Positions 48,795 through 61,987 of a stretch of 64,000 nt of DNA are shown in pieces. A program made the position numbers and the translations under genes. The stretch covers positions 768,001 through 832,000 of the forward strand of contig CAWBNQ010000003.1 in assembly GCA_963790205.1 (NCBI GenBank), written 5' to 3'. The stretch comes from Nitrospirota bacterium (GTDB lineage Bacteria; Nitrospirota; UBA9217). The notes below the pieces were generated by a model. The model was not told the DNA's origin and did no database searches. It saw nothing but the letters and a program-made list of their open reading frames with translations. The stretch's first letter is position 1, and each line of letters begins with the position of its first letter.

Positions 48795-51700
48795 TTAAAC
48801 AGGGGAACACCTCGCTAAGGTCATGCTGTCGAGAAACAGAAGGTAGCCTTCCACATTCTGCAGGGCAAAGATATCTTTTACGGCTTCGCAATAGATCTCG
48901 ATCTGAGGCCGGTAGTGGTCCTGCCACGATTTGAGGGCGTCATCGTTTTCTATGAGAATGGCCTTATAGTCTATCACCTATCCTCTGTTTCCTGTGATCA
49001 CAACGCGGTCGATTTTTCCGCTCACGAGCGCGTGTCCCTTCCTGGAGAGGAAGGGAAGCTCCGAGTATGCATCAGGCCGGCGCTCGAATATCCATCGGAA
49101 CTCCTCTTTGTTCAGTACGGCGTTCAGGACCGAGGCCGCATCATCGACGAAGGGCTGGCGTGCCTCGTCTCCCAGCGCCAGGATGTCCGGATATTCCATG
49201 ATGATGCTGTTGAGATCATATGCACCGGCCTTGGTGAACTCTTCGAGACAGCGGTGAAGCACGCTTCCGCGCGTGAGCGGCGATACGGCGCGGGTCCCGG
49301 ACCGGAGAAAGAGCTTTTCGATCGATTCTTCTTTCTCCTGGTGGATATAATCGGTCGCTGTTTTCCATGCCGGCGTCTCCGACCGCGGGACCGGAGAAAG
49401 GTTGTCGATGACGATCTTCCTGTCACTATCGGCTGCAGCGGATATTATTTGCCGGTCATTCCGGGCAACGCGAAGGACCTCGCTTGTGGCCCGTATGGAT
49501 ACGCCTGGTGGATAAGCGTAGGTGGTTAGTCCGGCTTCCGCTTCCAGCGGCTTTTCAAAAAGGGGCATCAAGGCGGCTTCGTGAAGATAGCTGAGCCAGG
49601 TATTTTGTTTTATCGGCGTTCTGCCGTCATTGAGCGCGCCGATCATGAACAGATGGTCCCGGGCCCGTGTCATCGCGACATAGAGCAGCCGCTGGTGCTC
49701 GCGCAAAAGCTCGTCGTGCTCCCGCGCCCACAGCTCGTCATAGACCGGGCTTCCCGCGTCCTTGACCGCCATTTGGACGCGGTCGTTCACATCCTCGATG
49801 ATGGCAAGCGGACCGGATGAGAGGGACCTGGGCTGCTGGTTCATGCCGGGCAGGAACACGATGGGATATTCGAGGCCTTTTGCCTTGTGCACGGTCATGA
49901 TGCTGACCGAGCCCTCGAACCCCGGCAGGTTCATGTCCGCCGTGGCCTCCCGCTGCTCCGTCTGACTGATGTTCCTCACCCACTCGACAAAGTCCTGGAG
50001 CGTGGTGTAGCCCCTGCGATCGAACTCGCGCGCCGTGTCGAGGAGTTTGTCGATGTTGAAAATGGCCTGCGGATTTTTCCTGCCGAAGCGGACATAGGCG
50101 CCGGTCTCGTTGACGATCCTGTGCAAAAGATCCGCCAGCGGGACGAGGCCGGCAAGGTCCATCCAATCGCGCAAAAGTTTCCAGTCCTCGGGTCTGCGCT
50201 GCTTCAGGGAATCAACGATATTCGCGCCGCCCTGCAGAAGATCGAAGATGTCTCTGTCCGTAAGCCCGAAGAGCGGGGACTTGAGCGCTGCGGCAAGAGC
50301 GAGCTTGTCGTCCCGGTTCCAGAGGAAGAAGAGCACGTTCATGAGGGCCTGCACCTCGTCCTCCTCGTAAAAGCCGATGCCGCCGATCACGCGATAGGGA
50401 ATGTTCTCCGCCTGGAGCGCGGCTTCGTACTCTTTGAGCTTCGTGCGCGACTGAATGAGGATTGCGCAGTCGCCGTATCCGGCTTCGCGTTCTTTCCATC
50501 CTCCATTGTTCGTTCCGGCATTCCCAGCGCGGGAATCCGGCGGCTTTTCATAAACAGCAGCTCCGCTTGCTATCAGAGTTTTTATCTCCCGCGCCAGCAC
50601 CTCTGCTTCTGTGGGGCCTGAAGGCCCTTCCCCTGACGACGGCGTGAGTTCGATGAGCCGCACGCTTCCTTTGTGATCCTTGCGTTCAACATTGGAAGGT
50701 TTATATGCTTCTCCCCAGAGTGTGGCGAAGACACGGTTCACGGTCTCGATGATCTCGGGCGTTGAACGGAAGTTCTTGTCAAGAGTAAGGATCTCGCGCG
50801 ATTCGGCCGGGAGGTTCTTCACCATCTTCTGTTTGACGTTCTCGATCAGGCGATAGTTCGCCTCGCGAAAGCGGTAGATGGATTGTTTCTCGTCGCCGAC
50901 GACAAAGAGGGTAGGGGCCATGCGCTTGTCAGCTCCCTGGCCGGCGAAGATCTCCTCGGTCAGCTTGTTCAGGATGGCCCACTGGATGTCGCTCGTGTCC
51001 TGGAACTCGTCAACGAGGAAGTGGAGGATCTTGCGGTCGAGCCAGTAGAGGATGTCCGGCGATTCCATTCCCTGGAGCAGGCGGTAGGCGTAGATCTCGA
51101 GGTCGTCGAAGTCGAGGAGTCCTTCCCGGAGCTTCGAGTTTTGATATTTCTTTTCGGCGCGCTGGAACAAACGAAGCAGGCTCAGGGCCTCTTGTCCCGC
51201 GCGCATGCGGGCGTGGAGAGCACGGAACTGGCCGAGCCTCTCCTGGATATCGAAAAAAGTTCTTTCGTAGTCGATGCGGTCTTTTCCAGTAAAGGCTTTT
51301 TTGGTGATGGAGGGGTTCTTGCGGGGATTTCCTTCGTTCGTAAAATAGATCGAGACCAGAGGCTCCGATGCTCTGAAGGCAGGATCTACGTCCTTTGCTT
51401 CTGAAAGCATCAGGTGCTCCTTGCCCATGCTGTCTTTATAATGATCGCCTTCGGAGCGAAGGATACGTTCCATCCGTTGCAGCAATGCCCGCCAATCAAC
51501 GCTCGTGACGAACGCCTTGAGTTCCGATTCAGCATGATCAACACCCATCCCCGTCCGAACGGCACGGAGCAACCCCTCCGGACCGCCGGTGTCGATCTCC
51601 ATGCGCTTGAGCCTGCTTCTGATGGAGAGCAGAAATCCGATCGTCTCAATGAGGGCATCAGTCGTGAAATCCCTGAGCGGAGACATGAGCTCCCGGTCGC

Positions 51701-52097
51701 GGTCGGATTCTTCAAGCGCGTCTTCGATGGCCTTTTGTATCTTATACACCTGGTCTCTGGCATCGAGCACGCCGAAGTCCGGCGGAAGCCCGGCTTCGAG
51801 CGGGTAGCGCTTCAAGAGGTTCATGCAGAAGGAGTGGATCGTCGAGATGCGGAGGTCCTGCCTGCCGCGGATGATCTTCTTGAGCATGTCCTCGGGCAGG
51901 TCGCGCATCACGCGCTCTTTGATCTCCGCCGCGGCCTTGTCCGTGAAGGTGATGGCCACGGCCTGGTCGATGGTGAGCCCGCGATCGTCGAGCACGTCCA
52001 GAAGCGCCAGGTAGCGCTCCTTGAGCGCGCGCGTTTTGCCGGAGCCGGCGGAGGCCGAGAGGTGGATGGATTTGGATGTATTTGAGGCGTTATCCAT
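48795..52097 (-). CDS. addA: AddA-type UvrD helicase-nuclease, interrupted by an in-frame TAG at 48978-48980
   Basis: ASAGSGKT, VDEFQDTS, VGDEKQSIYRFR, TVHKAKGLEY, YVAMTRA; nuclease GKIDR...[TAG]VIDYK...Q..Y continues in the same frame. Confidence 0.9.
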
Positions 52098-52142
52098 AGC
52101 TTTTACCGTCGATCAAACAGTATCAAAAATACCTTGACGAAT

Positions 52143-52167
52143 TGTAATGCAATGCATTGCAATTACA
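52143..52167 (+). promoter_or_regulatory. Palindromic operator upstream of the TA pair
   Basis: TGTAA-TGCAATGCATTGCA-ATTACA, next to TTGACG (52134). Confidence 0.6.
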
Positions 52168-52195
52168 TGCATGAACGTCCATTGAGGAGGCATCT

Positions 52196-52579
52196 ATGCA
52201 ATCGCAACTGACCGTGAGACTGCCGGAAGACCTTGACCGCGAGGTCTCCAGCGCAGCCAAAAGGCTTCGCCTCAAGCGCTCCGACATCGTGCGGCCGGCG
52301 CTGGAACAGTATCTGCGCGAGCCCCATGTTCAGGAGGAGCAGGCCCCCTACGGCAAAGTGAAACATCTCGTCGGCTCGGTCAAGAGCGGTATTCCCGATC
52401 CGGGCGCTTCTCACCGGGAGCACCTCGTGAAGCGGATCAGACGCAATGGATGGCATCCTGCTCGACACCGGGGCCTTTGTCGCGCTCCTGGACCGAAGCG
52501 AGAAGAACCATGCAAGGTGCGTAGCATTCTTCAGCTCCTTCCCTGGCAGAGTATTCACCACCGAACCCGTGCTTACTGA
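52196..52579 (+). CDS. Ribbon-helix-helix antitoxin (VapB-like); conserved part probably ends near 52450
   Basis: QLTVRLPEDL...RSDIVR RHH; GSVKSG motif; GAGGAGG RBS. Confidence 0.75.
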   Translation: MQSQLTVRLPEDLDREVSSAAKRLRLKRSDIVRPALEQYLREPHVQEEQAPYGKVKHLVGSVKSGIPDPGASHREHLVKRIRRNGWHPARHRGLCRAPGPKREEPCKVRSILQLLPWQSIHHRTRAY

Positions 52580-52859
52580 AGCCCTCTGTCTTCTCGGTCC
52601 GTCAATCAAGGCGCAACGCGCCTGTCTGGAGTTCATCCTCAAGGGCGGGGCCACTCTTGTGCCGCAATCAACAGCAAGCCTTGAACGCGCCGCTTCGCTC
52701 ATGACGAAGTATCATGACATCCCCATGGATTTCGCCGACGCGACGCTTGTCGCTCTCGCCGAAGAAACGGGTATCAATGAAGTTTTCACCCTCGACAAAC
52801 GGGGATTTCAATCTTACCGCATCCAAGGAAAGAAACCCTTTACATTACGGCCCCTATAA
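52446..52859 (+). CDS. PIN-domain VapC toxin
   Basis: LLDTG, VLTE, MDFADA, FTLD. Confidence 0.9.
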   Translation: MDGILLDTGAFVALLDRSEKNHARCVAFFSSFPGRVFTTEPVLTEALCLLGPSIKAQRACLEFILKGGATLVPQSTASLERAASLMTKYHDIPMDFADATLVALAEETGINEVFTLDKRGFQSYRIQGKKPFTLRPL

Positions 52860-52860
52860 A

Positions 52861-54060
52861 TTAAGAATGACCTAAACTCTTATATATCTCTTCGAAATTA
52901 ATACCTCCAATGGTTACGCCCTCATACGCTTCGGGAAGAGATTTTAAAACGCTCTCCAGATGACTTGAGGTTATACCGTGGGCAACGGAAAGTGATGCCT
53001 CCATATAAGCTGCAAGATGGTCACATGCCTTGATAACTTCTCCATCGACTGGAGAGAACCTGTCGTCGTTATATTGAGAATTCAATGAATCAGCAGGCAC
53101 AGCCTTTACCGTGCCATTTTCCAGAATCTTGCTGCTGAACTCGTCCTCGATGAAGTATTTTATCTCTTGGTGCCAGCTTTCAGGCAGGAGCGGAAGGATG
53201 CGTTCTTCTACCTGTTTCTTTTCGATTTCCTTGATCAAGTCTTCGAGTCCTGCAACAGACCTTTTAACCGGAGATACGATGTCCCGCGTCAAGACCTCGG
53301 GTAGATCATGGAAGAGACCAGCGAAGAAATTGTTTCTTACGCGGACATCACAGGCCCCAGCTTCCTCGGCACATATATAAGCAAGCACGGCAACAACCAG
53401 CATGTGCCCCATTACTGACGTGGCAGGAACCCTCGGCGATTTGGTCCACCGTTGCTGGAACCTGAGTTGGCCTACGAGGTCCGTGAAATTTCCGACTTTT
53501 TTTACGAGGCTGATCTTCTGCACCCCGATCATATCTGAATACAACTCGAGATCTTCCTCGATTTGCTGTTTCGTTTCGGTTATTTCATAAAAATGCTTGT
53601 TCAGTGGATAAACGATCCCGAATTCCCAATTCGTCGCTAGGTAGTGGGCCGCCTGGAGTATCCTCCGCTCATCGGGGAAGAGTCGCTCATTAAGTAAGTA
53701 AGCTTCAAAGCGGTCCATGAAGCCGCTGCTGATATCCCTGAGCGTATCGTTAAGCTGGTCGAGCACCCAACGGTTCAGCTTCTCTCCGCTATCGCGCATC
53801 ATCCGATGAAAGACCGGAGGCTTGATATCCGTGAGAACGGTCCGATGGAAAAACTCAAATAAGGCGCCCTCGATCAATACCTTCCAATCAACCGGAGATC
53901 CACCGCTCGTTTCTTCGAACTTCGCAAGAACATATGCATAAAACATTTTGTGTGCTTGTTTGTCTAATTCAGTAAAACCATGAGGTGGTCGGATATGGTC
54001 GTTCCAGCGTTGGATGTGGGCGGATTCGTAGATTAGTTCAAGGATGGCTTTAGTGATCAT
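52861..54060 (-). CDS. HD-domain hydrolase (YfbR-like 5'-deoxynucleotidase type, duplicated fold)
   Basis: QRWND...ELDKQAHK; RFQQRW...SVMGH...FHDLPE.LTRDI.SPVK; CDHL. Confidence 0.8.
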   Translation of the reverse strand: MITKAILELIYESAHIQRWNDHIRPPHGFTELDKQAHKMFYAYVLAKFEETSGGSPVDWKVLIEGALFEFFHRTVLTDIKPPVFHRMMRDSGEKLNRWVLDQLNDTLRDISSGFMDRFEAYLLNERLFPDERRILQAAHYLATNWEFGIVYPLNKHFYEITETKQQIEEDLELYSDMIGVQKISLVKKVGNFTDLVGQLRFQQRWTKSPRVPATSVMGHMLVVAVLAYICAEEAGACDVRVRNNFFAGLFHDLPEVLTRDIVSPVKRSVAGLEDLIKEIEKKQVEERILPLLPESWHQEIKYFIEDEFSSKILENGTVKAVPADSLNSQYNDDRFSPVDGEVIKACDHLAAYMEASLSVAHGITSSHLESVLKSLPEAYEGVTIGGINFEEIYKSLGHS

Positions 54061-54149
54061 AAGTGATTACGAACTGGTCGACAATAAACATATGATTGTC
54101 GCGCGTCGAAGGAGCGACATATTGCTACGACAGTGGAGCATTATGTTTA

Positions 54150-54638
54150 TCACCTTTTTCTGTTAAGTGGTGGCATTTCTAAGTGTTCATTAAAATAACG
54201 CTTCAGTAGGTCTCTCTCTGCTTTATCCGGTTGTGGATGAACTACATAATTGATAGCAATTGGTCCGTAGGTCTTAATTATATATTCATATCGTTTCCAA
54301 TTGTAGTCATCATCTCCACCTGCCTCCGTTGACGCATATTTGTAATGTCTATCGAACAAGCTAGTTATTGTTTTTCCAATATAGACAACGTCACTCGTGG
54401 ATTTTAGACGCGGTATCGCCCCCTTAGTGGTGGCCCAAACGTACACTACACCTACTGCACTATGTGCTTCATCGGATAAGAATACATTTTTAAACGCAAT
54501 TCGAAAGCTATCTCGGTTGCTACCTTCCAGTACTCCCGGAAGATTTTTTATTTCCCCATCAAGGTTAGCCATTAATTCATCATGATTCATACGTTTCATT
54601 CCTTTCTGCCTTTCTGGCGAAATAGCATTTATCTCCAT
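54150..54638 (-). CDS. GIY-YIG-like nuclease domain protein (start probably 54590)
   Basis: GVVY...VYIGKT..L..R...E...PPLN pattern. Confidence 0.65.
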   Translation of the reverse strand: MEINAISPERQKGMKRMNHDELMANLDGEIKNLPGVLEGSNRDSFRIAFKNVFLSDEAHSAVGVVYVWATTKGAIPRLKSTSDVVYIGKTITSLFDRHYKYASTEAGGDDDYNWKRYEYIIKTYGPIAINYVVHPQPDKAERDLLKRYFNEHLEMPPLNRKR

Positions 54639-54672
54639 GGTTGAGCGCGCAAATAAGGAATATCATTGTTAA

Positions 54673-55059
54673 TTACTTTCGTTTGACCTTTAGTACAACA
54701 ACTAGAGCCAAAACAGGAATTGGCACATCGCCATCGGTTTCCCAGCTATCGGAGGAGCTTCCGTTGTATGGTTTTAATGTTCTGCCATCCCATTCCCAGC
54801 TATCGGAGGAGCTTCCGTTGTATGGCTTTAATGTTCTGCCATCCCATTCCCAACTATCGGAGGAGCTTCCGTTGTATGGTTTTAATGTTCTGCCATCCCA
54901 TTCCCAACTATCGGAGGAGCTTCCGTTGTATGGTTTTAATGTTCTGCCATCCCATTCCCAACTATCGGAGGAGCTTCCGTTGTATGGCTTTAATGTTCTG
55001 CCATCCCATTCCCAGCTATCGGACGAACTTCCATTGTATGGCTTAATAGTTATGCTCAT
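54673..55059 (-). CDS. Perfect 18-aa tandem-repeat protein (KPYNGSSSDSWEWDGRTL) with hydrophobic C-terminal segment
   Basis: AGAGGTG RBS; all differences between units are synonymous in this frame. Confidence 0.85.
   Translation of the reverse strand: MSITIKPYNGSSSDSWEWDGRTLKPYNGSSSDSWEWDGRTLKPYNGSSSDSWEWDGRTLKPYNGSSSDSWEWDGRTLKPYNGSSSDSWEWDGRTLKPYNGSSSDSWETDGDVPIPVLALVVVLKVKRK
54741..55046. repeat. 54-bp tandem repeat, about 5.7 copies
   Basis: Units start at 54741, 54795, 54849, 54903, 54957 and 55011. Confidence 0.95.
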
Positions 55060-55288
55060 CGAATTTCACCTCTTTTATTAAATGGTGGGTTGATTGCGTA
55101 GAATAATGCTAAACTCGACAACTCAATATAAGCGCAGTCTGGTCCACAATAAATGAACGGCTATTCTTTCTCCTTTTATATTTTACTGTCGCTGGATAAG
55201 AGTGATCACCGACAAAAAATTTGTCGCGTAGAATGTGTCAACTGTCTTTTAAAGGCCCTATCGACTAAGCAGAGCTATGATATGACAG

Positions 55289-55317
55289 AGTGTATATAGG
55301 AAGGATGTACTTGTCAA
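55289..55317 (-). promoter_or_regulatory. sigma70-type promoter upstream of the repeat-protein gene
   Basis: Minus strand TTGACA-17bp-TACACT. Confidence 0.55.
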
Positions 55318-55455
55318 TAATATTTCTGGTTCACAAATCTAATGAGGGCCAATCATTTTTACTCGGGTTAGCTCGTAAGCGCCAAGTTGTTCTCCAGTCT
55401 GATTTTCTCAACTCCTCGACCACTGTTTCCTTCTTGGAATATCTATATCCTCACA

Positions 55456-55824
55456 TCACTTTAACTTCATCGTGCAGATATACACGCTGAGAACAGAGGC
55501 TTCCTGCGAATTATTGGGAAGCCCACCGGCTGTTTTGGCATCATAGATAAAATCAATTATGCCCTTTGACACTTCATAAGATAGCGAAGCCTCTTTGTAT
55601 CCATCAAGAAGCTCTGTCTTGGATGCACCTCTTTTATAATGGTCGAAAATCTGAGATCCATAAAGAGATGCTACATCCTTGCAGATTGAAGCATTCTGAG
55701 GTGTCATCTGGTTGAGATTTTTCTGTGCCTTCCTCGAAAGTTCCTTCGCATCAAATGCTGAAGAGGATGAACAGCCAGCCATTGTTACAAACATCACGAT
55801 AATCAAAAGCGCAAGCTTATTCAT
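55456..55824 (-). CDS. Hypothetical lipoprotein
   Basis: MNK plus hydrophobic stretch and MAGC lipobox; GGAG RBS. Confidence 0.75.
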   Translation of the reverse strand: MNKLALLIIVMFVTMAGCSSSSAFDAKELSRKAQKNLNQMTPQNASICKDVASLYGSQIFDHYKRGASKTELLDGYKEASLSYEVSKGIIDFIYDAKTAGGLPNNSQEASVLSVYICTMKLK

Positions 55825-55876
55825 ACGTGTTTTCTCCTGGCATTATTTTTTGTTACAGATATAGATCAATTATGCT

Positions 55877-56038
55877 TTACTTGCCCACTACATTTTCTTC
55901 AATGAACTTTAACCGCTCGGCCAAGTTTCTCCACGGCCCTCCACACATTTTCGCCATAAAAGGTGTAAGCATGCACTCTGGTTTATAATAACAATTATTG
56001 CACTTGATGGGTTTGTTTTCACCATTTTGAATTATCAT
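55877..56038 (-). CDS. 53-aa Cys-rich protein, not in the ORF track
   Basis: MIIQNGENKPIKCNNCYYKPECMLTPFMAKMCGGPWRNLAERLKFIEENVVGK*; ATG 6 nt after a -10 box. Confidence 0.55.
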   Translation of the reverse strand: MIIQNGENKPIKCNNCYYKPECMLTPFMAKMCGGPWRNLAERLKFIEENVVGK

Positions 56039-56044
56039 TCAAGT

Positions 56045-56077
56045 AGAATAACACCAGCTACTGACAACAGTATGTCA
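56045..56077 (-). promoter_or_regulatory. Putative WYL-activated promoter 2
   Basis: Minus strand TGACA-TACTGT-TGTCAG-N10-TATTCT-N6-ATG. Confidence 0.7.
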
Positions 56078-56455
56078 TACTCGAATAAGGGTTAAAGCTT
56101 TCTTTATCGTATTTAGCAAATATGCATTTTCTGGTGGCTTTATTATAAAATCAAATGCTCCCGTAAGAAATGCCTTCTTGGCCGTTTCCTTGCTCGCATA
56201 GTTCGCAAGTATGATCACCGGCATTCGCGGCCTGAATTCCCTCAACCTCCGTAGCGTTTCTAGCACTTCGAGCTCTGGCATGGTAGCATCCGTGTCTATG
56301 ACCGCTAGGGCGATTTCTTCTCTGGAAATTATTTCGAGTCCTTCCGCTGGGGATGTCGCCGAAATAGCCTGATAGCTCTCAGAGCAAAGAAGTCTGACAA
56401 GAGGCGCGAGAACTTCCTTGTTAAGGGTGATTATTAAAATTTTTTCATTATTCAC
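56075..56455 (-). CDS. Stand-alone atypical receiver-domain protein
   Basis: LAVID..., MPVIIL, GAFDFIIKP; lacks the N-terminal acidic pair; probable GTG start at 56455. Confidence 0.75.
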   Translation of the reverse strand: MNNEKILIITLNKEVLAPLVRLLCSESYQAISATSPAEGLEIISREEIALAVIDTDATMPELEVLETLRRLREFRPRMPVIILANYASKETAKKAFLTGAFDFIIKPPENAYLLNTIKKALTLIRV

Positions 56456-56462
56456 GAGATAT

Positions 56463-56496
56463 AAAATACCTTCTATTCCTGACAGCATTATGTCAG
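56463..56496 (-). promoter_or_regulatory. Putative WYL-activated promoter 1
   Basis: Minus strand CTGACA-TAATGC-TGTCAG-N10-TATTTT-N7-GTG. Confidence 0.7.
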
Positions 56497-56532
56497 TGGT
56501 TGAAATTTTTTATTTGAGAGAAAAATCAAGCT

Positions 56533-57513
56533 TCAGCGGCCTTTATTTTTTTTCTGATATAAAGCTGCCATTGATTTGAGTTCGCTTGCCACTTCTTTTC
56601 TGAATTCCGGCGGGGCAAGAACCTCACAGTCTGATCCCCAGTGATAAATCCAACGCCGGATCTCATCGGTGCCCTCAAGTGTGACCTTGAATATAATCGA
56701 CCCGTCTTTCTTGGTTTCTATCTTTTGTGATGGATGCCATTTCCGCCTTGTTATCCAGCGAGACATGCCGTGGCTGAACCTCAATTTTATCTCTACGGGG
56801 CTGCCATATCTGATGATATGCCAGCCTGCTTTGAAGTATTCATCCATGGAGAATCCCTGTGGAATGACATAATTTCTATGGGTTGCCGCGACATTTTGAA
56901 TGCAATCAAGAGCAAATTCCCGGATGCATTTCTTCTCGTGGCAGTAGGCAAGAGTGTACCAGACCCCGTTGCTGTAAAAGAGGCCATACGGATTTATCAT
57001 CCTTTGGGTCATCTTCTGGCTTCCCATAGCGTGGTACGTTATATCCAAGCTGACCTTCTCATCAAGGGCTTTTTGCAACGCGTCAAATTGCTTTTGAACA
57101 GCAGAAAAATCGTCGACGGGGTCTATATCAAACCAGTAATTTGAAGAAACGGTTTTCAGCCTTTGTCCTGTTTTATGTCCAGTCCCAAGCGTGATCTTCT
57201 TCATAAGACCGCTGTAAGCATTCGCAATCCCATGTCCCAGTTTGGAGAGCACAGCTTTGCTTGCCAGCATGGCCCTCGCCTCGTCAGTGGACAAATCAAT
57301 TTTTTTGAGCGAATAGCCTTCGGTAAATCGATAAGAGGCGGCGTCCTCATTAAAATAGACGGGGAAATCAAGAGAAAGCGCTCCGAGGTCCCTGTACACG
57401 GTCCTTTCTGCTACGCCGAAACGTTCGGCAAGACCTTTAGCAGTCACTTTCCCTCCTTTATCTATAAGGCTCAGGATTTCAACCATCCTGTTAACTCGTT
57501 TCATATCAGCCAT
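56533..57513 (-). CDS. wHTH-WYL-WCX transcriptional regulator (YafY/PafBC/DriD-like)
   Basis: LAERFGVAERTVYRDL HTH; R.INPYGL...WYTLAYC...REFALDCI; WHPSQ, W...WG..CEVLAP. Confidence 0.93.
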   Translation of the reverse strand: MADMKRVNRMVEILSLIDKGGKVTAKGLAERFGVAERTVYRDLGALSLDFPVYFNEDAASYRFTEGYSLKKIDLSTDEARAMLASKAVLSKLGHGIANAYSGLMKKITLGTGHKTGQRLKTVSSNYWFDIDPVDDFSAVQKQFDALQKALDEKVSLDITYHAMGSQKMTQRMINPYGLFYSNGVWYTLAYCHEKKCIREFALDCIQNVAATHRNYVIPQGFSMDEYFKAGWHIIRYGSPVEIKLRFSHGMSRWITRRKWHPSQKIETKKDGSIIFKVTLEGTDEIRRWIYHWGSDCEVLAPPEFRKEVASELKSMAALYQKKNKGR

Positions 57514-57522
57514 GGATACTCC

Positions 57523-60500
57523 TCATTTTCCCTGTGCATCATCCGTGGAGGCCGCTCCATCACACATCACCTCATTCGGGCAATAACGGCATTTGTTCTC
57601 GTCCTGCGGCGTTGAGGTGAAATTGCCCGCCAGGATGGCCTCGATTGCCTTACGGGCCTTGTCCATGCTCTGATTCAGGATCGTCTCGAATTCATCTGTG
57701 CTTTTGGGGCTTGCGTTGGGCTTGGACGAGGGGTGATCGTTCCGCGCTTCCTTGTTAAAGAGCACAACGTCCCGGGCGCCTGCCCGGGTCTTGCCCGCGA
57801 GATCGTAATACGCGAGGCCTATCGGTTTCTTCAATGCCGGACCCTTGGCGAGCAATGCCCGCTGTGACATGACCGCATAGACGGGGAGTTGAAAAATGTC
57901 CTGGTCAACGTTCATTTTCGGCAAAGGATATTTGCCCGTCTTGTAGTCTACGATGATGAAGTTCCCGTTCTCGTCCACGTCGATTCGGTCTATCCTGGCC
58001 GAGAGTTCGACTTCCTCGCCGTTCGAAAGAAGAAGCGGATAACGCTCGATCTTTTGTTCAAGGTAGGCCGGACGGAATCCTTGTTTCCAGAATTTCTCTT
58101 CCGCATCAAGGAATCGCTCAGCCATGACGGTCAGGAACAGCTCTTTCTCCCGCCGGTTGCGGAAGGTGTCGGCCTCGGGATCGAAGGCTGAGTCAGCGAG
58201 TTTTCGTAAGATCGTCCGCGCCTCATCCCGGGCCGCTCTCGTGACGGGCCTGGTCCAGGAAAGATAGAAGTTCCGGAGGATCGCGTGCACTTTGCTGCCG
58301 CGGGCCATGGGCGAAATGTCTTCGGTCGGCTCTTCGAGCGGTTCGATGCGGAGAACGTATTTTACGTAATAATCGTAGGGGCACTTGAGGTAATCGTCCA
58401 GCTCGGTGACCCGGAATTCCCGTTTCACGAACGGCGTGTTACCCTGAGCGCGTTCTTCAGGCTTATAGTCGAGGGCTGATCTGATCCCGGACACGCCTTC
58501 GATGTTCGAATTCAGGATCTCATCGAGCCCTTTGATGCTCCCCGCAAGACCGATCGCCTTTGCCAGTTCAGGAACGCTGCGACTGTCCTCGATCTTTAAA
58601 CTGAACTGAATACCGGAGGTCTTCCCGATCCCGCGATTCAGCAGGCCCGCCTCCTTGAGCGGGGTCAGCTCCTCCAGAAAGGGCGACGGCACCACGGGCC
58701 TGTCGCCCTCGTTCTCCGGCCAGGTCAGCGTGATAGTATCAGCCGAGAGCAGGAGACGGTAAAAATGATAGGCTGCGTTCAGGCGCGCCCGCTCAAGCGT
58801 GCGCACGCCCATGGCCTCGAGCGTCTGCTCGGGAAGGAAGATGTTCTGCGGCAGGCGTTGGGGAAACTTGCCGTCTGCAAGCCCGCCGAGGTAGATCTCC
58901 TGCCAGGGAGTGCCCAGGCTTTCCTCGAGCCCCAGGATCTGCACGCCCCCTTCGTCCTCGGGCGGCACCTGGAAGCGGGTGTGCATGAAGGTCTTCTTCA
59001 AAAGGAAGAGCCATTCGTGGAACGTATGCGTATAGCCGGCGAAAAGGCTCCCTGCCCGGGCAAGCGACCCCAGCGTTTCGATCAGTTTCCGGTAGGCCTG
59101 GAGATTGACATTGAGGGGGCCGTGAATTGCCGCGACCCTGGCGCCGAGGCCTGACCAGGCAATGAGAACGTCGAGGCGCTTCATCCAGATATTGAGCGGC
59201 GCAGTATCCTGTGAAGAAAAAGGTTCGAGTGCTGCAAAGAGCTCGTTCAATGGTCCGGTCAGTACGTCGGAAGCGCTTTCATCAAGCTTGTGGAGTTTAA
59301 GCGCTGCAAGGAGTTTCTGCCTGCCGCCAATAATGCGCCTGTCCCGCATGAGCCGGTCGAGCGCCGGAGCGATCGTCCGGTTTTCGGCGAACTTCAAAAA
59401 AGGAGAACTAAAGACGCGCAGGAGCGACGGGCCGGAGAAATCTTCCTGGCATGCGCGAAGGAGCGAGACCACGGCAATGGCAACCGCCGAGGTGCTGAGC
59501 TGCCTGCCAAGCGCGCGGTTGTAGGGGATGCCGTAGTCGTTGAATATCTCTTCCACGAGCGGGCCGTATTCGTCGAGCGCGGGAAAGGCAATGAGGATCG
59601 AGTCCGCCAATGTGCCGGTTTTGAGCGATCTCTTCACCTCGCCGGCGATGAGCGTAACCTCTTCACGGGTATTCACGGCTGAGAGCAGATTGATCGTCTT
59701 TGCGAACGATGAAGGTTGGGGAGCTTTGTCCGCTATCTCGGAAAAAGGCCTGTCCGAAAACAGGGCCGAGGCAAGGAACAGCTGCTCGTCATCCGCGTCA
59801 ACTCCCGCCTCCTTCGGAAGGACCCCGATACTGACAAGAGAATCGTGAACAATCCTGAGGGGATGATATTCACCTGCACGTTTAAGCAGGTCTGATGAGG
59901 GAACGTTAACGAGCCATGTGCAGTTTCCGCAGTCCGCCACTTTTTTAAGAATGTCCGCTTCGAGCGGGCCGATGTCCTGAATGCCGTCGATGATGATCGT
60001 GCGATAGTGCGCCAGCCAGACGGGATCGAAGCGGTCGCGAAGGTATGCGCGCATCCCCGCGGGATCGGTAAGGTTGCCCTCTTTTAGAGCGTTTTGATAG
60101 CGGGTATACACGTCAAGGAGCAGCCGGACTTGCGGTTTGTCGAAAGAATCCGAACCTTGTATCTTTACCGAGAGGTCGTCGGGGTTTATGCCGGCGCCCG
60201 AAAGCTGCTCGATCATTGTTGCCACTGCCGAGGTGAGCGACGGCGCGAGCAGGTCGGGACTGAGAGGGAATGAGGAGAAATTGCTCAGGCGTTCTTTCAC
60301 GATGCCTTCGAGAAGGACCAGCCTGCTGTTCTCGTCCATCAGAAGGGGCCCGTTGAGACGGCCATAGAGCAGCTGAAGGAACTGGTGGAGCGTCTGGACC
60401 TCGGGCTGGACCAGCGCGGCGGACCCTCTGCGCTCCGCGAATTCCAGGAACAGCCTGCCGTACATCCGCTTCATGCGCGAAGAGGGCACGAGGATTAGAA

Positions 60501-60612
60501 CGTCGTTATACAGGAAGGGCGCAGCCGGCCGCGAAGACAGAACATCTTCAAGCACGCGCTTTTTTTCTTCCCAGCCGGCGCTTCCATATGGCAGAACGAG
60601 CGCTTTCAACAT
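57523..60612 (-). CDS. addB: AddB-type PD-(D/E)XK nuclease subunit
   Basis: KCPY, RGSKVH, RIDRID...IVDYKTG, QLPVY, CRYCPNEVMC (Fe-S staple Cys); neighbour of addA. Confidence 0.88.
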   Translation of the reverse strand: MLKALVLPYGSAGWEEKKRVLEDVLSSRPAAPFLYNDVLILVPSSRMKRMYGRLFLEFAERRGSAALVQPEVQTLHQFLQLLYGRLNGPLLMDENSRLVLLEGIVKERLSNFSSFPLSPDLLAPSLTSAVATMIEQLSGAGINPDDLSVKIQGSDSFDKPQVRLLLDVYTRYQNALKEGNLTDPAGMRAYLRDRFDPVWLAHYRTIIIDGIQDIGPLEADILKKVADCGNCTWLVNVPSSDLLKRAGEYHPLRIVHDSLVSIGVLPKEAGVDADDEQLFLASALFSDRPFSEIADKAPQPSSFAKTINLLSAVNTREEVTLIAGEVKRSLKTGTLADSILIAFPALDEYGPLVEEIFNDYGIPYNRALGRQLSTSAVAIAVVSLLRACQEDFSGPSLLRVFSSPFLKFAENRTIAPALDRLMRDRRIIGGRQKLLAALKLHKLDESASDVLTGPLNELFAALEPFSSQDTAPLNIWMKRLDVLIAWSGLGARVAAIHGPLNVNLQAYRKLIETLGSLARAGSLFAGYTHTFHEWLFLLKKTFMHTRFQVPPEDEGGVQILGLEESLGTPWQEIYLGGLADGKFPQRLPQNIFLPEQTLEAMGVRTLERARLNAAYHFYRLLLSADTITLTWPENEGDRPVVPSPFLEELTPLKEAGLLNRGIGKTSGIQFSLKIEDSRSVPELAKAIGLAGSIKGLDEILNSNIEGVSGIRSALDYKPEERAQGNTPFVKREFRVTELDDYLKCPYDYYVKYVLRIEPLEEPTEDISPMARGSKVHAILRNFYLSWTRPVTRAARDEARTILRKLADSAFDPEADTFRNRREKELFLTVMAERFLDAEEKFWKQGFRPAYLEQKIERYPLLLSNGEEVELSARIDRIDVDENGNFIIVDYKTGKYPLPKMNVDQDIFQLPVYAVMSQRALLAKGPALKKPIGLAYYDLAGKTRAGARDVVLFNKEARNDHPSSKPNASPKSTDEFETILNQSMDKARKAIEAILAGNFTSTPQDENKCRYCPNEVMCDGAASTDDAQGK

Positions 60613-60643
60613 TGCGGCATGATTATGCCACAAGTAAAAATTA

Positions 60644-60672
60644 TTGACAATGATTAGTGCATCGTCTATAAT
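60644..60672 (+). promoter_or_regulatory. Consensus sigma70 promoter for fdx-trxA-tlpA, back-to-back with a likely addB promoter
   Basis: TTGACA-17bp-TATAAT; minus strand TTGTCA-17bp-CATAAT shares the -35 region. Confidence 0.85.
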
Positions 60673-60689
60673 TTTGAAACAATTGTTAT

Positions 60690-60884
60690 ATGCAGTATAG
60701 CGTTACGGAAAATAAGTGCACGGGATGCGGGACCTGCCTGGATGTCTGTCCGACCGAGGCGATAAAAATGATCGCGGGGCGCGCGAAGATCACGATGGAC
60801 TGCATCGACTGCGGGGCCTGCCCGCGTGTCTGCCCCGAAGGCGCGATCAAACAGGCGCTTCCTGCGGCCGTTCAAAATTCATGA
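60690..60884 (+). CDS. 2x[4Fe-4S] ferredoxin
   Basis: CTGCGTCLDVCP and CIDCGACPRVCP. Confidence 0.92.
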   Translation: MQYSVTENKCTGCGTCLDVCPTEAIKMIAGRAKITMDCIDCGACPRVCPEGAIKQALPAAVQNS

Positions 60885-60905
60885 TTACATCGTTTGAAGG
60901 AGGTT

Positions 60906-61232
60906 ATGATGGCTGAAGCCGTAACGAGCGCAACATGGGACCAGGAAGTACTGAAGGCAAACGGACTCGTCCTGGTCGACTTCTGGGCGGTATGGTGCGG
61001 GCCCTGCAGGATGGTGGCCCCGATCGTAGACGAGATATCCAAGGAGTACGAAGGAAAGATCAAGGTCCTCAAGCTCAACACCGATGAGAACCCGGACGTG
61101 GCGGGCAAGTACCGCATCATGGGCATCCCGACGTTGATGTTCTTCAAGAACGGCCAGACCGTCGACCAGGTCGTCGGCGCCGTGCCCAAGGCACAGCTCA
61201 AAACCAAGGTGGATGCGCTTCTCGCAAAATAA
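60906..61232 (+). CDS. trxA: Thioredoxin
   Basis: [22 protein letters not shown]. Confidence 0.96.
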
Positions 61233-61364
61233 GACGTCCTCCCGTTTTTAACTTGAACCGGGCGTGTGAACGCCCATCCGTTATGGTTCTGTATGGCCGG
61301 CTGCCCGCTTTCGAAAGCGGGCAGCTTCGTTTTCACGCTTTTTAAGGCGAAGGAGATCCATTCG

Positions 61365-61844
61365 ATGTTCAGGAAAGCCCTCGTGTTATCGGTCCTGGTC
61401 ATTGCGATGCTGTTCGGCTGCACCGCCGGGAACGAAAGCTCCGCATCATCGGACTTCAAGTTGCAGGATTTAAACGGGAAGATTGTCAAGCTTTCCGATT
61501 TTAAAGGCAAGCCGGTGCTGCTCGACTTCTGGGCCACCTGGTGTCCTCCGTGCCGCGCCTCCATTCCGGGGATCGAGAAACTGTATAAGACCTATAGCGG
61601 CAAGGGACTGGTTGTGCTCAGTATATCGCTCGACGAGGGCGATTGGGATTCGGTGAAGTCCTTCGCAACCGAACAGGGCATTACCTATCCGGTGCTCAAG
61701 GGGACCGAAGACGTTGCTGCGCAGTTCCAGGTGCGCACGATTCCCATGCTGGTCATCATCAATAAGGAAGGCAAGATCGTTAAACGCTATCTCGGATTCA
61801 GTGATGACGATGAGCTCGAAAAGGACATTAAAACCGTTCTGTAA
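61365..61844 (+). CDS. TlpA/ResA-family thiol-disulfide oxidoreductase lipoprotein
   Basis: LFGC lipobox; DFWATWCPPC. Confidence 0.9.
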   Translation: MFRKALVLSVLVIAMLFGCTAGNESSASSDFKLQDLNGKIVKLSDFKGKPVLLDFWATWCPPCRASIPGIEKLYKTYSGKGLVVLSISLDEGDWDSVKSFATEQGITYPVLKGTEDVAAQFQVRTIPMLVIINKEGKIVKRYLGFSDDDELEKDIKTVL

Positions 61845-61869
61845 CAATGCGAGGCGACCGGTTTTTTCA

Positions 61870-61898
61870 TTGACAGGGAACAGGCCTGCCGCTATAAT
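61870..61898 (+). promoter_or_regulatory. Consensus sigma70 promoter of tRNA-Gly
   Basis: TTGACA-17bp-TATAAT. Confidence 0.85.
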
Positions 61899-61911
61899 AA
61901 TCTTCGAAAAA

Positions 61912-61987
61912 GCGGGCGTAGCTCAGCTGGTAGAGTGCAAGCTTCCCAAGCTTGATGTCGCGGGTTCGAGCCCCGTCGCCCGCTCCA
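61912..61987 (+). tRNA. tRNA-Gly (anticodon CCC)
   Basis: GCGGGCG/CGCCCGC acceptor stem, CAAGC-TTCCCAA-GCTTG anticodon arm, GGTTCGAG T-loop, 3' CCA. Confidence 0.97.

Follow-up and report, generated by a model that had tools for sequence, protein, structure and literature searches.

Introduction

Transcriptional activators with a WYL domain are described from several bacteria, including DriD of Caulobacter crescentus, PafBC of mycobacteria, DdaA of Moraxellaceae and SiwR of Mycobacterium smegmatis. Here, we have compared these systems with a WYL-headed gene cassette that lies between addB and addA in a window of 64,000 nucleotides (nt) from a Nitrospirota bacterium (contig CAWBNQ010000003.1, 768,001-832,000; coordinates below are positions in this window). 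We consider it probable that the locus is a horizontally acquired activator cassette in a variable addB-addA slot, and that its regulator activates two local cargo promoters.

DriD is a protein with a helix-turn-helix of the winged type (wHTH), a WYL and a WCX domain, whose palindromic site, CGAC-N7-GTCG, overlaps a missing -35 element (PMC13004042), and whose regulon comprises recA, recJ and didA. PafBC is a heterodimer that reads a half-site with the motif tGTCgg(N10)tA(N3)T (PMC8635444); its pocket contains F210, R211 and R214 of PafB (PMC6789036), and a mutant of PafBC in which both arginines are changed binds no single-stranded DNA (ssDNA; PMC11804915). DdaA is a homodimeric, chromosomally encoded global activator of repair and defence genes, whose site, CGWCA-N5-TGWCG, lies some 50 bp upstream of the start; it has Ala in place of the first pocket arginine and is still damage-responsive (PMC12392091). 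SiwR, which serves as the model of a WYL activator that acts locally (PMC10693628), is a homodimer that keeps both arginines and activates adjacent, dinB-like genes from a palindrome just upstream of the -10 box. BrxR and CapW, in contrast, are WYL repressors, whose genes head variable cargo in island-like DNA.

The WYL regulator

The regulator that heads the cassette is the following gene:

56533..57513, minus strand: WYL regulator, 326 amino acids (aa), wHTH-WYL-WCX, DriD/PafBC-like

Its domains occur in the order of class A WYL proteins, i.e. HTH_11 (1e-5), WYL (4e-18) and WCX (7e-22), and its length is close to that of DriD. Both profile and fold searches (model pLDDT 74, pTM 0.46) place PafBC and DriD ahead of CapW and BrxR, with E-values of 3e-19 and 3e-26 for the former and 7e-8 or worse for the repressors; DriD is the top Foldseek match, while PafBC is the best sequence match. 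The helix-turn-helix carries arginines at positions i and i+4, as in PafBC: R37 is present in 45 of the 52 members of the window clade and R41 in all 52, and we equate the two with PafB R46 and R50 through their spacing and motif. In contrast with PafBC, the regulator is encoded by a single gene, reads a palindromic site, has a local regulon and lies outside any pup-proteasome context. A single-protein scan of genome contigs gave no match.

Membership of the described groups was considered as well. As a DriD orthologue, the regulator would be expected to show a CGAC-N7-GTCG site and a global repair regulon; neither was found, there is no site scored by the operator matrix outside the cassette, and the host genome has a lexA match. 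The BrxR/CapW group does not fit either, the nearest matches being elsewhere and no known defence operon being headed by the gene. The regulator would most likely be an activator of the local cargo, not of this genome's addAB, and appears to represent a variant of the DriD/PafBC-type activators with an apparently undescribed operator. In the literature that was covered (subscription papers, figures and supplements, including the DdaA alignments and the SiwR palindrome, lay outside its scope), we found neither this motif nor this clade, and nothing relevant on a Cys sensor or an addAB hotspot.

Two candidate operator-promoters in the cassette

Two candidate operator-promoters precede the first two cargo genes, a stand-alone receiver and a 53-aa Cys protein:

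56463..56495, minus strand: operator-promoter 1, TGACA-N6-TGTCA at 56480-56495, 11 bp before -10 box TATTTT
56045..56077, minus strand: operator-promoter 2, TGACA-N6-TGTCA at 56062-56077, overlapping the receiver stop, 11 bp before -10 box TATTCT
56075..56455, minus strand: stand-alone receiver, 126 aa from GTG, 7 nt past the -10 box, without the N-terminal acidic pair as read from the sequence
55877..56038, minus strand: 53-aa Cys protein, ATG 6 nt past the -10 box

The perfect palindrome TGACA-N6-TGTCA occurs only twice in the 4.34-Mb genome; both copies are in the cassette, both are followed by TAnnnT at a gap of 11 bp, and both point in the direction of the cargo. The bare palindrome by itself is expected two to three times per shuffled genome, and its count within the window (2 against 1.03 expected) is not above chance, so that the case for an operator rests on position, on the spacing to the -10 box and on the orthologues; together with the -10 box, the pattern occurred 0 times in three shuffles.

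Among 113 loci returned, 85 hold orthologues at 35% identity or more. With a spacer of 6, 44 distinct palindromes were found in these 85 loci, while each of the spacers 3-5 and 7-10 gave at most 1; the loci are mutually related, and the counts therefore overstate independence. Where the flank was long enough (42 sites), TAnnnT followed at a gap of 11 bp in 35 of 42 in the forward direction and in 3 of 42 in the reverse direction, and any other gap was seen at most four times. When the WYL genes are grouped at 90% identity and five half-site variants are allowed, the site is present in 38 of 55 groups, many of the misses being short contigs. Of the 63 family relatives, 10 contain the full pattern, against 1 for a control pattern; in the phylum, it occurs in 37 of 401 genomes, where the control gives 11 in our own table count, so that some of these occurrences are due to chance. 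When the genome is scanned with a weight matrix derived from the other loci, nothing but the two cassette sites exceeds 14 bits; these reach 29 and 32 bits, the training range beginning at 25.8, and no operator is found before addB, addA or the WYL gene itself. A global regulon in this genome was looked for and rejected, as sites with two mismatches number 30, against 29-42 in three shuffles. What the sequence itself shows is the site, its fixed spacing and the fact that, in this genome, it is confined to the cassette.

The geometry of these sites resembles that of the described activators. The distance from the TGTC half-site to the -10 box equals that of the PafBC motif, and the position of the -35 element falls within the palindrome, as with DriD, the match to the -35 consensus having a mean of 2.2 of 6 letters in 36 sites and reaching 4 in 1 of 36. 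The site reads GAC-N8-GTC in the DriD notation, i.e. its spacer is one base longer; the sites of DriD and DdaA are one base shorter than TGACA-N6-TGTCA and begin with C (PMC10853764, PMC12392091, PMC13010146). The start codons lie 6-7 nt past the -10 boxes, and the homologue of the Cys protein in another genome (52% identity) has the same offset behind its operator, which implies leaderless mRNAs; the transcripts of the receiver and of the 53-aa protein would accordingly lack leaders. Since the ATG at 56488 falls within the operator, the start of the receiver is most likely the GTG at 56455. A first-pass annotation had proposed that the regulator switches on the adjacent genes, which the two operator/-10 promoters render very probable.

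Several CGACA/TGTCG inverted repeats with other spacers lie between cargo genes at 54060-54150 and 55100-55230, with no operator-matrix score.

The sensory pocket

Part of the WYL pocket is conserved in the window clade: Y160, R171 and Y186 in 52 of 52 members and R198 in 51 of 52, which are the equivalents of DriD Y168, R178, Y192 and R204. Other residues are altered. The PafB residues F210, R211 and R214 map to F200, A201 and C204, so that the F-R-x-x-R of PafBC becomes F-A-L-D-C; Ala is found at position 201 in 52 of 52 members and Cys at position 204 in 50 of 52. In the HMMER alignment with DriD, Ala and Cys stand for R207 and R210, and R189, Y240 and R288 are not kept. The DriD paper equates the PafBC pair with R204 and R208 instead, and on that mapping one arginine is kept. 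Among the 150 nearest cluster representatives, the pair is Ala/Arg in 64, Arg/Arg in 26 and Ala/Cys in 6; Ala is a common residue here, as at the first arginine of DdaA, and Cys is the mark of the clade.

A single-stranded trigger, as had been put forward in the first-pass annotation, becomes uncertain because these arginines are replaced. We nevertheless hold it rather likely that the signal is ssDNA or a similar nucleic acid.

The addB-addA locus and its slot in relatives

The cassette is flanked by the following features:

57523..60612, minus strand: addB, 1029 aa from ATG 60612, with intact Fe-S cysteines and nuclease motif
60650-60622, minus strand: addB promoter, sigma70-like
48978..52097, minus strand: addA, 1039 aa, stopped short of the DYK nuclease motif by an in-frame TAG
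48795..48977, minus strand: same-frame tail of addA, 60 codons, rest of the nuclease domain with the DYK motif
52196..52859, plus strand: RHH-PIN pair, VapBC-like, a separate insertion

The order on the minus strand is as first described: addB, WYL regulator, receiver, 53-aa Cys protein, lipoprotein, repeat protein, GIY-YIG-like gene and HD gene, then the RHH-PIN pair on the opposite strand, and addA; domain searches recover HTH_11, WYL and WCX in the regulator, the receiver, HD_3/YfbR-like, RHH and PIN. The AT-rich middle is equally evident, with a GC content of 43.8% in 52861-57513 against 55.1% for the genome; as a scale, 45% or less is reached by 1.7% of 4280 genome windows of the same size. 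The WYL gene starts 9 bp after the addB stop, a GAGGAG overlaps this stop, and the gene has no operator of its own, which makes the proposed co-transcription with addB probable.

AddB, the sole addB match in the genome, is recognised by PDDEXK_1 and AddA by UvrD helicase; their best NCBIfam matches are AddB-type models and addA_alphas, respectively, all below the curated cut-offs. The domains of an AddAB enzyme can be recognised, with the helicase and nuclease in AddA and the Fe-S nuclease in AddB, but the AddA nuclease is cut by the TAG. The addB promoter belongs to a back-to-back pair of sigma70 promoters at 60622-60672, with a perfect TTGACA-17-TATAAT toward ferredoxin-thioredoxin; it has an extended -10 and a very short leader, and its -10 accounts for the 'LWHN' extension in relatives.

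We surveyed the slot in 63 relatives of the same family, 53 of which have the end of addB and the start of addA on one contig; in the other ten, the genes are on different contigs (3), addA has no match (2), or addB has none (the rest). The gap has a median of 86 bp, is below 300 bp in 41 of 53 and reaches 3017 bp at most, in comparison with 5455 bp here; none of the 53 gaps could hold the cassette. Close orthologues of the regulator occur in 9 of 400 other genomes of the phylum, five of them in the family and none at addAB. The conserved linkage of WYL and addAB, on which the first-pass annotation had staked its proposal, is therefore not seen in the family, while a minority of other lineages do carry operators or WYL genes near AddAB-like genes.

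Its expectation of a slot with variable cargo holds for the wider gaps that were read. The RHH-PIN pair is also in the slot of G007 and G020, at 72-77% DNA identity; transposase-like genes, which we take to be RAYT genes, occupy it in G006, G023, G118, G133 and G240, as well as in G008 at a contig end, and one of the two that were tested matched Y1_Tnp; PemK pairs are found in G008; and a FIST/kinase pair makes up the 3017-bp gap of G092 and is found in G203 across two contig ends. Because the wider gaps hold toxin-antitoxin (TA), transposase-like, PemK or FIST/kinase genes, the slot is an insertion site in the family, and the TA pair is an insertion separate from the cassette. The cassette itself would be a foreign block, acquired horizontally and inserted at the addB-addA junction. 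The RHH antitoxin frame (52196-52579, 127 aa) extends into the PIN gene, while the copy in G007 ends at about 85-90 aa, i.e. a stop codon was lost.

A second strain of the same species is represented by contigs from two peat runs of one study. X1 covers 55877-61957 and X2 covers 55877-61098, each in a single piece; since both span the addB-WYL junction on one piece, this junction is not an assembly artefact. They differ from the window at 535 and 534 positions, respectively, and 534 of the 535 differences of X1 fall within 55877-61098. The flanks show 6 differences in 1486 letters and 2 in 573 (less than 1%), while the addB-addA block is about 10% diverged, with 4-11% for the pieces of the peat addA. 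Divergence extends from about 48.9 kb to 60.7-61.1 kb and takes in the whole addA-cassette-addB block, which would be best explained as a replacement by homologous recombination. The peat contigs are tied to one organism only through equal depth and through single contigs that cross the ends of the tract. The peat strain keeps addB, WYL, the receiver, the Cys protein and, further on, the HD gene (47 differences in 1204), with protein identities of 93.5% (WYL), 97.7% (HD) and 92% (Cys protein), and differs in the middle: 54061-55472 and the PIN gene are not in its contigs, and other sequence joins across.

The stop codon in addA

The split of addB and addA by the cassette had been noted before, while the in-frame TAG at 48978-48980, one codon before VIDYK, had been overlooked. 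The other five listed members of the 90% cluster (5 of 5) have Tyr at this place, and relatives have Y, F, H, Q or S. If the stop is real, the helicase of AddA would be whole and its nuclease, which cuts the 3' strand (PMC3321194), lost. A pyrrolysine reading was rejected, as the genome gives no PylS match above the cut-off and the relatives vary. A general error load was also rejected: in a small test of 40 matched regions, addA holds the only internal stop, the remaining three stops being spurious extensions or an antisense frame. An isolated assembly error at 48978-48980, rather than a real mutation, is possible. The codon after the TAG is GTG, from which a separate 60-aa tail could be made.

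The remaining cargo

Four further genes follow the Cys protein:

55456..55824, minus strand: predicted lipoprotein of 122 aa without a family, its lipobox read from the sequence
54673..55059, minus strand: repeat protein, 128 aa, 54-bp tandem repeats, beta-flower-like (a lead only, at a low recognition score)
54150..54638, minus strand: GIY-YIG-like nuclease, homologues beginning at the Met at 54590
52861..54060, minus strand: HD hydrolase, 399 aa, C-terminal half YfbR-like (5'-deoxynucleotidase fold)

None of the cargo frames is interrupted. The repeat protein stands as described, with the resemblance to beta-flower proteins as an addition. The likeness to GIY-YIG, although it lacks a Pfam match, is backed by the Atlas and by the conservation of Y50, Y70-I-G, R81, E125 and N143 in four of four aligned sequences, i.e. 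of the GIY and YIG tyrosines, Arg, Glu and Asn, which we take to be the catalytic residues; the single-sequence fold, with a pLDDT of 42, was too poor for use. The HD gene is present in 2 of 63 relatives, both times downstream of an operator, and lies within 6 kb of the WYL gene in 4 of 55 groups. A 15-bp direct repeat that flanks the beta-flower and GIY-YIG genes is, by our estimate, at chance level.

Weighing the explanations

In the mechanism that we propose, the regulator is probably made from the addB transcript and would bind TGACA-N6-TGTCA over the -35 position as a homodimer, as DriD does. It would thereby activate two promoters in which the -10 box is not accompanied by a -35 element, starting the leaderless transcripts of the receiver and of the 53-aa protein, and the lipoprotein, beta-flower, GIY-YIG and HD genes would probably be expressed through read-through. 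As its signal, the remodelled pocket would most likely sense a nucleic acid that arises from DNA damage or invasion, and the output would be a small local module for DNA or nucleotide stress with exchangeable cargo, without control of this genome's addAB or recA. The position within addAB would be mostly opportunistic; a dedicated resection trigger and a defence role are not favoured as its reason, while a coupling to resection is possible.

Several points weigh against this explanation, in addition to the altered pocket and the relatedness of the orthologue loci. We infer binding and activation from sequence. Operators stand only before the first two cargo genes, so that the GIY-YIG and HD genes require about 2 kb of read-through, for which the count of strong terminators (8 found, 9.9 expected) is weak evidence. 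Elsewhere, an operator lies 72 bp before the addA-addB operon of G034 (L257 10828-10900), and operators with one mismatch precede addA-addB in G042 and G059 (L296, L297), where a normal sigma70 promoter also lies between site and start; this amounts to three of three genomes of genus g29 with the gene. Because such operators precede addAB-like operons in g29 and the layout is kept in the 10%-diverged peat block, the link of the clade to AddAB would not be purely accidental.

These last observations bear on a selected coupling of sensor and generator, where AddAB resection would make the ligand of the regulator, the AddA stop would raise 3' ssDNA through the loss of the nuclease, and read-through from WYL could raise addA. 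It draws on the 9-bp addB-WYL spacing and the recurrence of this junction within single contigs of two peat runs, on a WYL gene that immediately precedes an addA-addB-like pair in L144 and stands two genes ahead of one in L173/L184, and on operators before the addB-like/addA-like pairs in islands of G023 and G020. We regard it as doubtful, however: the linkage is seen in 0 of 53 family relatives, only 2 of 55 WYL groups have an AddA and AddB pair at a distance of up to 6 kb, no operator precedes addB or addA here, and the pocket is altered. No WYL gene was found in G042 (96% complete) or in G059 (65%). The AddA proteins of the pairs linked to operators or to WYL are 23-24% identical to that of the window. 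Furthermore, AddAB acts in trans, so that linkage is not needed.

An anti-phage module, in which the regulator induces the GIY-YIG nuclease and a nucleotide-depleting HD hydrolase on infection and the addAB block is swapped under phage pressure, is about equally unlikely. It would account for the mosaic block next to near-identical flanks in the peat strain, as well as for the restriction-modification (RM), GmrSD/Lamassu-like and TA genes in some orthologue loci, and DdaA does tie damage to defence (PMC12392091). On the other hand, 0 of 6 cargo proteins and 0 of 2 TA proteins matched PADLOC 2.0 at E 0.05, which leaves the defence role of the first-pass annotation without a match, the regulon in other loci consists mostly of AAA ATPases, lipoproteins and hydrolases without defence annotation, and no relative of the regulator was found in the viral contigs searched.

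We give no better odds to a broader proposal. In this view, a mobile WYL clade with its own operator, in which Ala and Cys have taken the place of the two arginines that bind ssDNA, would respond to another ligand, such as a nucleic acid that is short or modified or a damaging agent that reacts with thiols. The clade would repeatedly recruit AddAB-type enzymes, and would sit here in a strain-exchanged addAB block with a nuclease-less AddA, making end resection a swappable, signal-generating trait.

A neutral, decaying passenger, with addA and the TA pair degenerating, is less probable still: the TAG, the antitoxin frame that runs into the toxin gene and the failure to find the middle cargo in the peat contigs are in line with it, but the operators score within the training range, the cargo frames are open, and WYL and HD are closely similar to their peat counterparts. 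Lastly, a BrxR/CapW-type repressor, whose palindrome blocks the promoter until a ligand binds, is very unlikely: the site does cover the -35 position and CapW and BrxR were also matched, but there is no -35 consensus under it, the 11-bp gap is fixed as in activators, the similarity is weaker, and no known defence system lies downstream here.

With a horizontally acquired activator cassette as the preferred explanation, an operator, a promoter geometry and start sites would now be defined for a WYL activator clade in Nitrospirota, Nitrospinota and deltaproteobacterial metagenome-assembled genomes, with a spacing like that of PafBC and a palindrome like that of DriD, beyond the groups hitherto studied; as with SiwR, the targets would be adjacent genes, and in contrast with DdaA, the clade is mobile and has a patchy distribution, being present in 10 of 401 phylum genomes. 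The natural loss of both pocket arginines offers a test case for whether all WYL activators read ssDNA, the operator marks a number of genes that lack annotation as probably serving in damage or stress, and the strain mosaic suggests that core repair genes are exchangeable together with cargo.

Genes behind the operator in other loci

The first genes behind 106 scored operator sites, annotated in subsets, include many AAA ATPases, WYL itself, metallo-beta-lactamase (MBL) hydrolases, uracil-DNA glycosylase (UDG)-like and Ogg-like genes, RmuC, DnaB-like genes, DUF2779, lipoproteins and unknowns, while RM, GmrSD/SMC and TA genes lie nearby in some orthologue loci. The AAA ATPase, often with a WHD domain and IetA-like by PADLOC, is the gene most commonly found directly behind the operator across the clade (e.g. 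L109, L112, L115, L116, L123, L125, L139, L159 and L160), and is absent from this cassette.

When 32 genomes were searched with the Pfam WYL model, a single WYL gene lay behind an addB-like gene. This was in G030, which belongs to another family; there, the addB-like gene (L062 2111-10411) is followed by an unrelated WYL gene (24% identical), a layout that can be set beside the sensor-generator coupling, and by three genes (199, 430 and 683 aa) without Pfam or PADLOC matches, addA being on another contig. The island of G023 (L262 1076-8634) consists of an integrase, an operator, an HD gene (46% to that of the window), a second operator, addB-like and addA-like genes and an ATPase gene. In L178 (580-4688), a WYL operon includes an FtsZ-family gene, a Tpt1/KptA RNA 2'-phosphotransferase and an HD gene.

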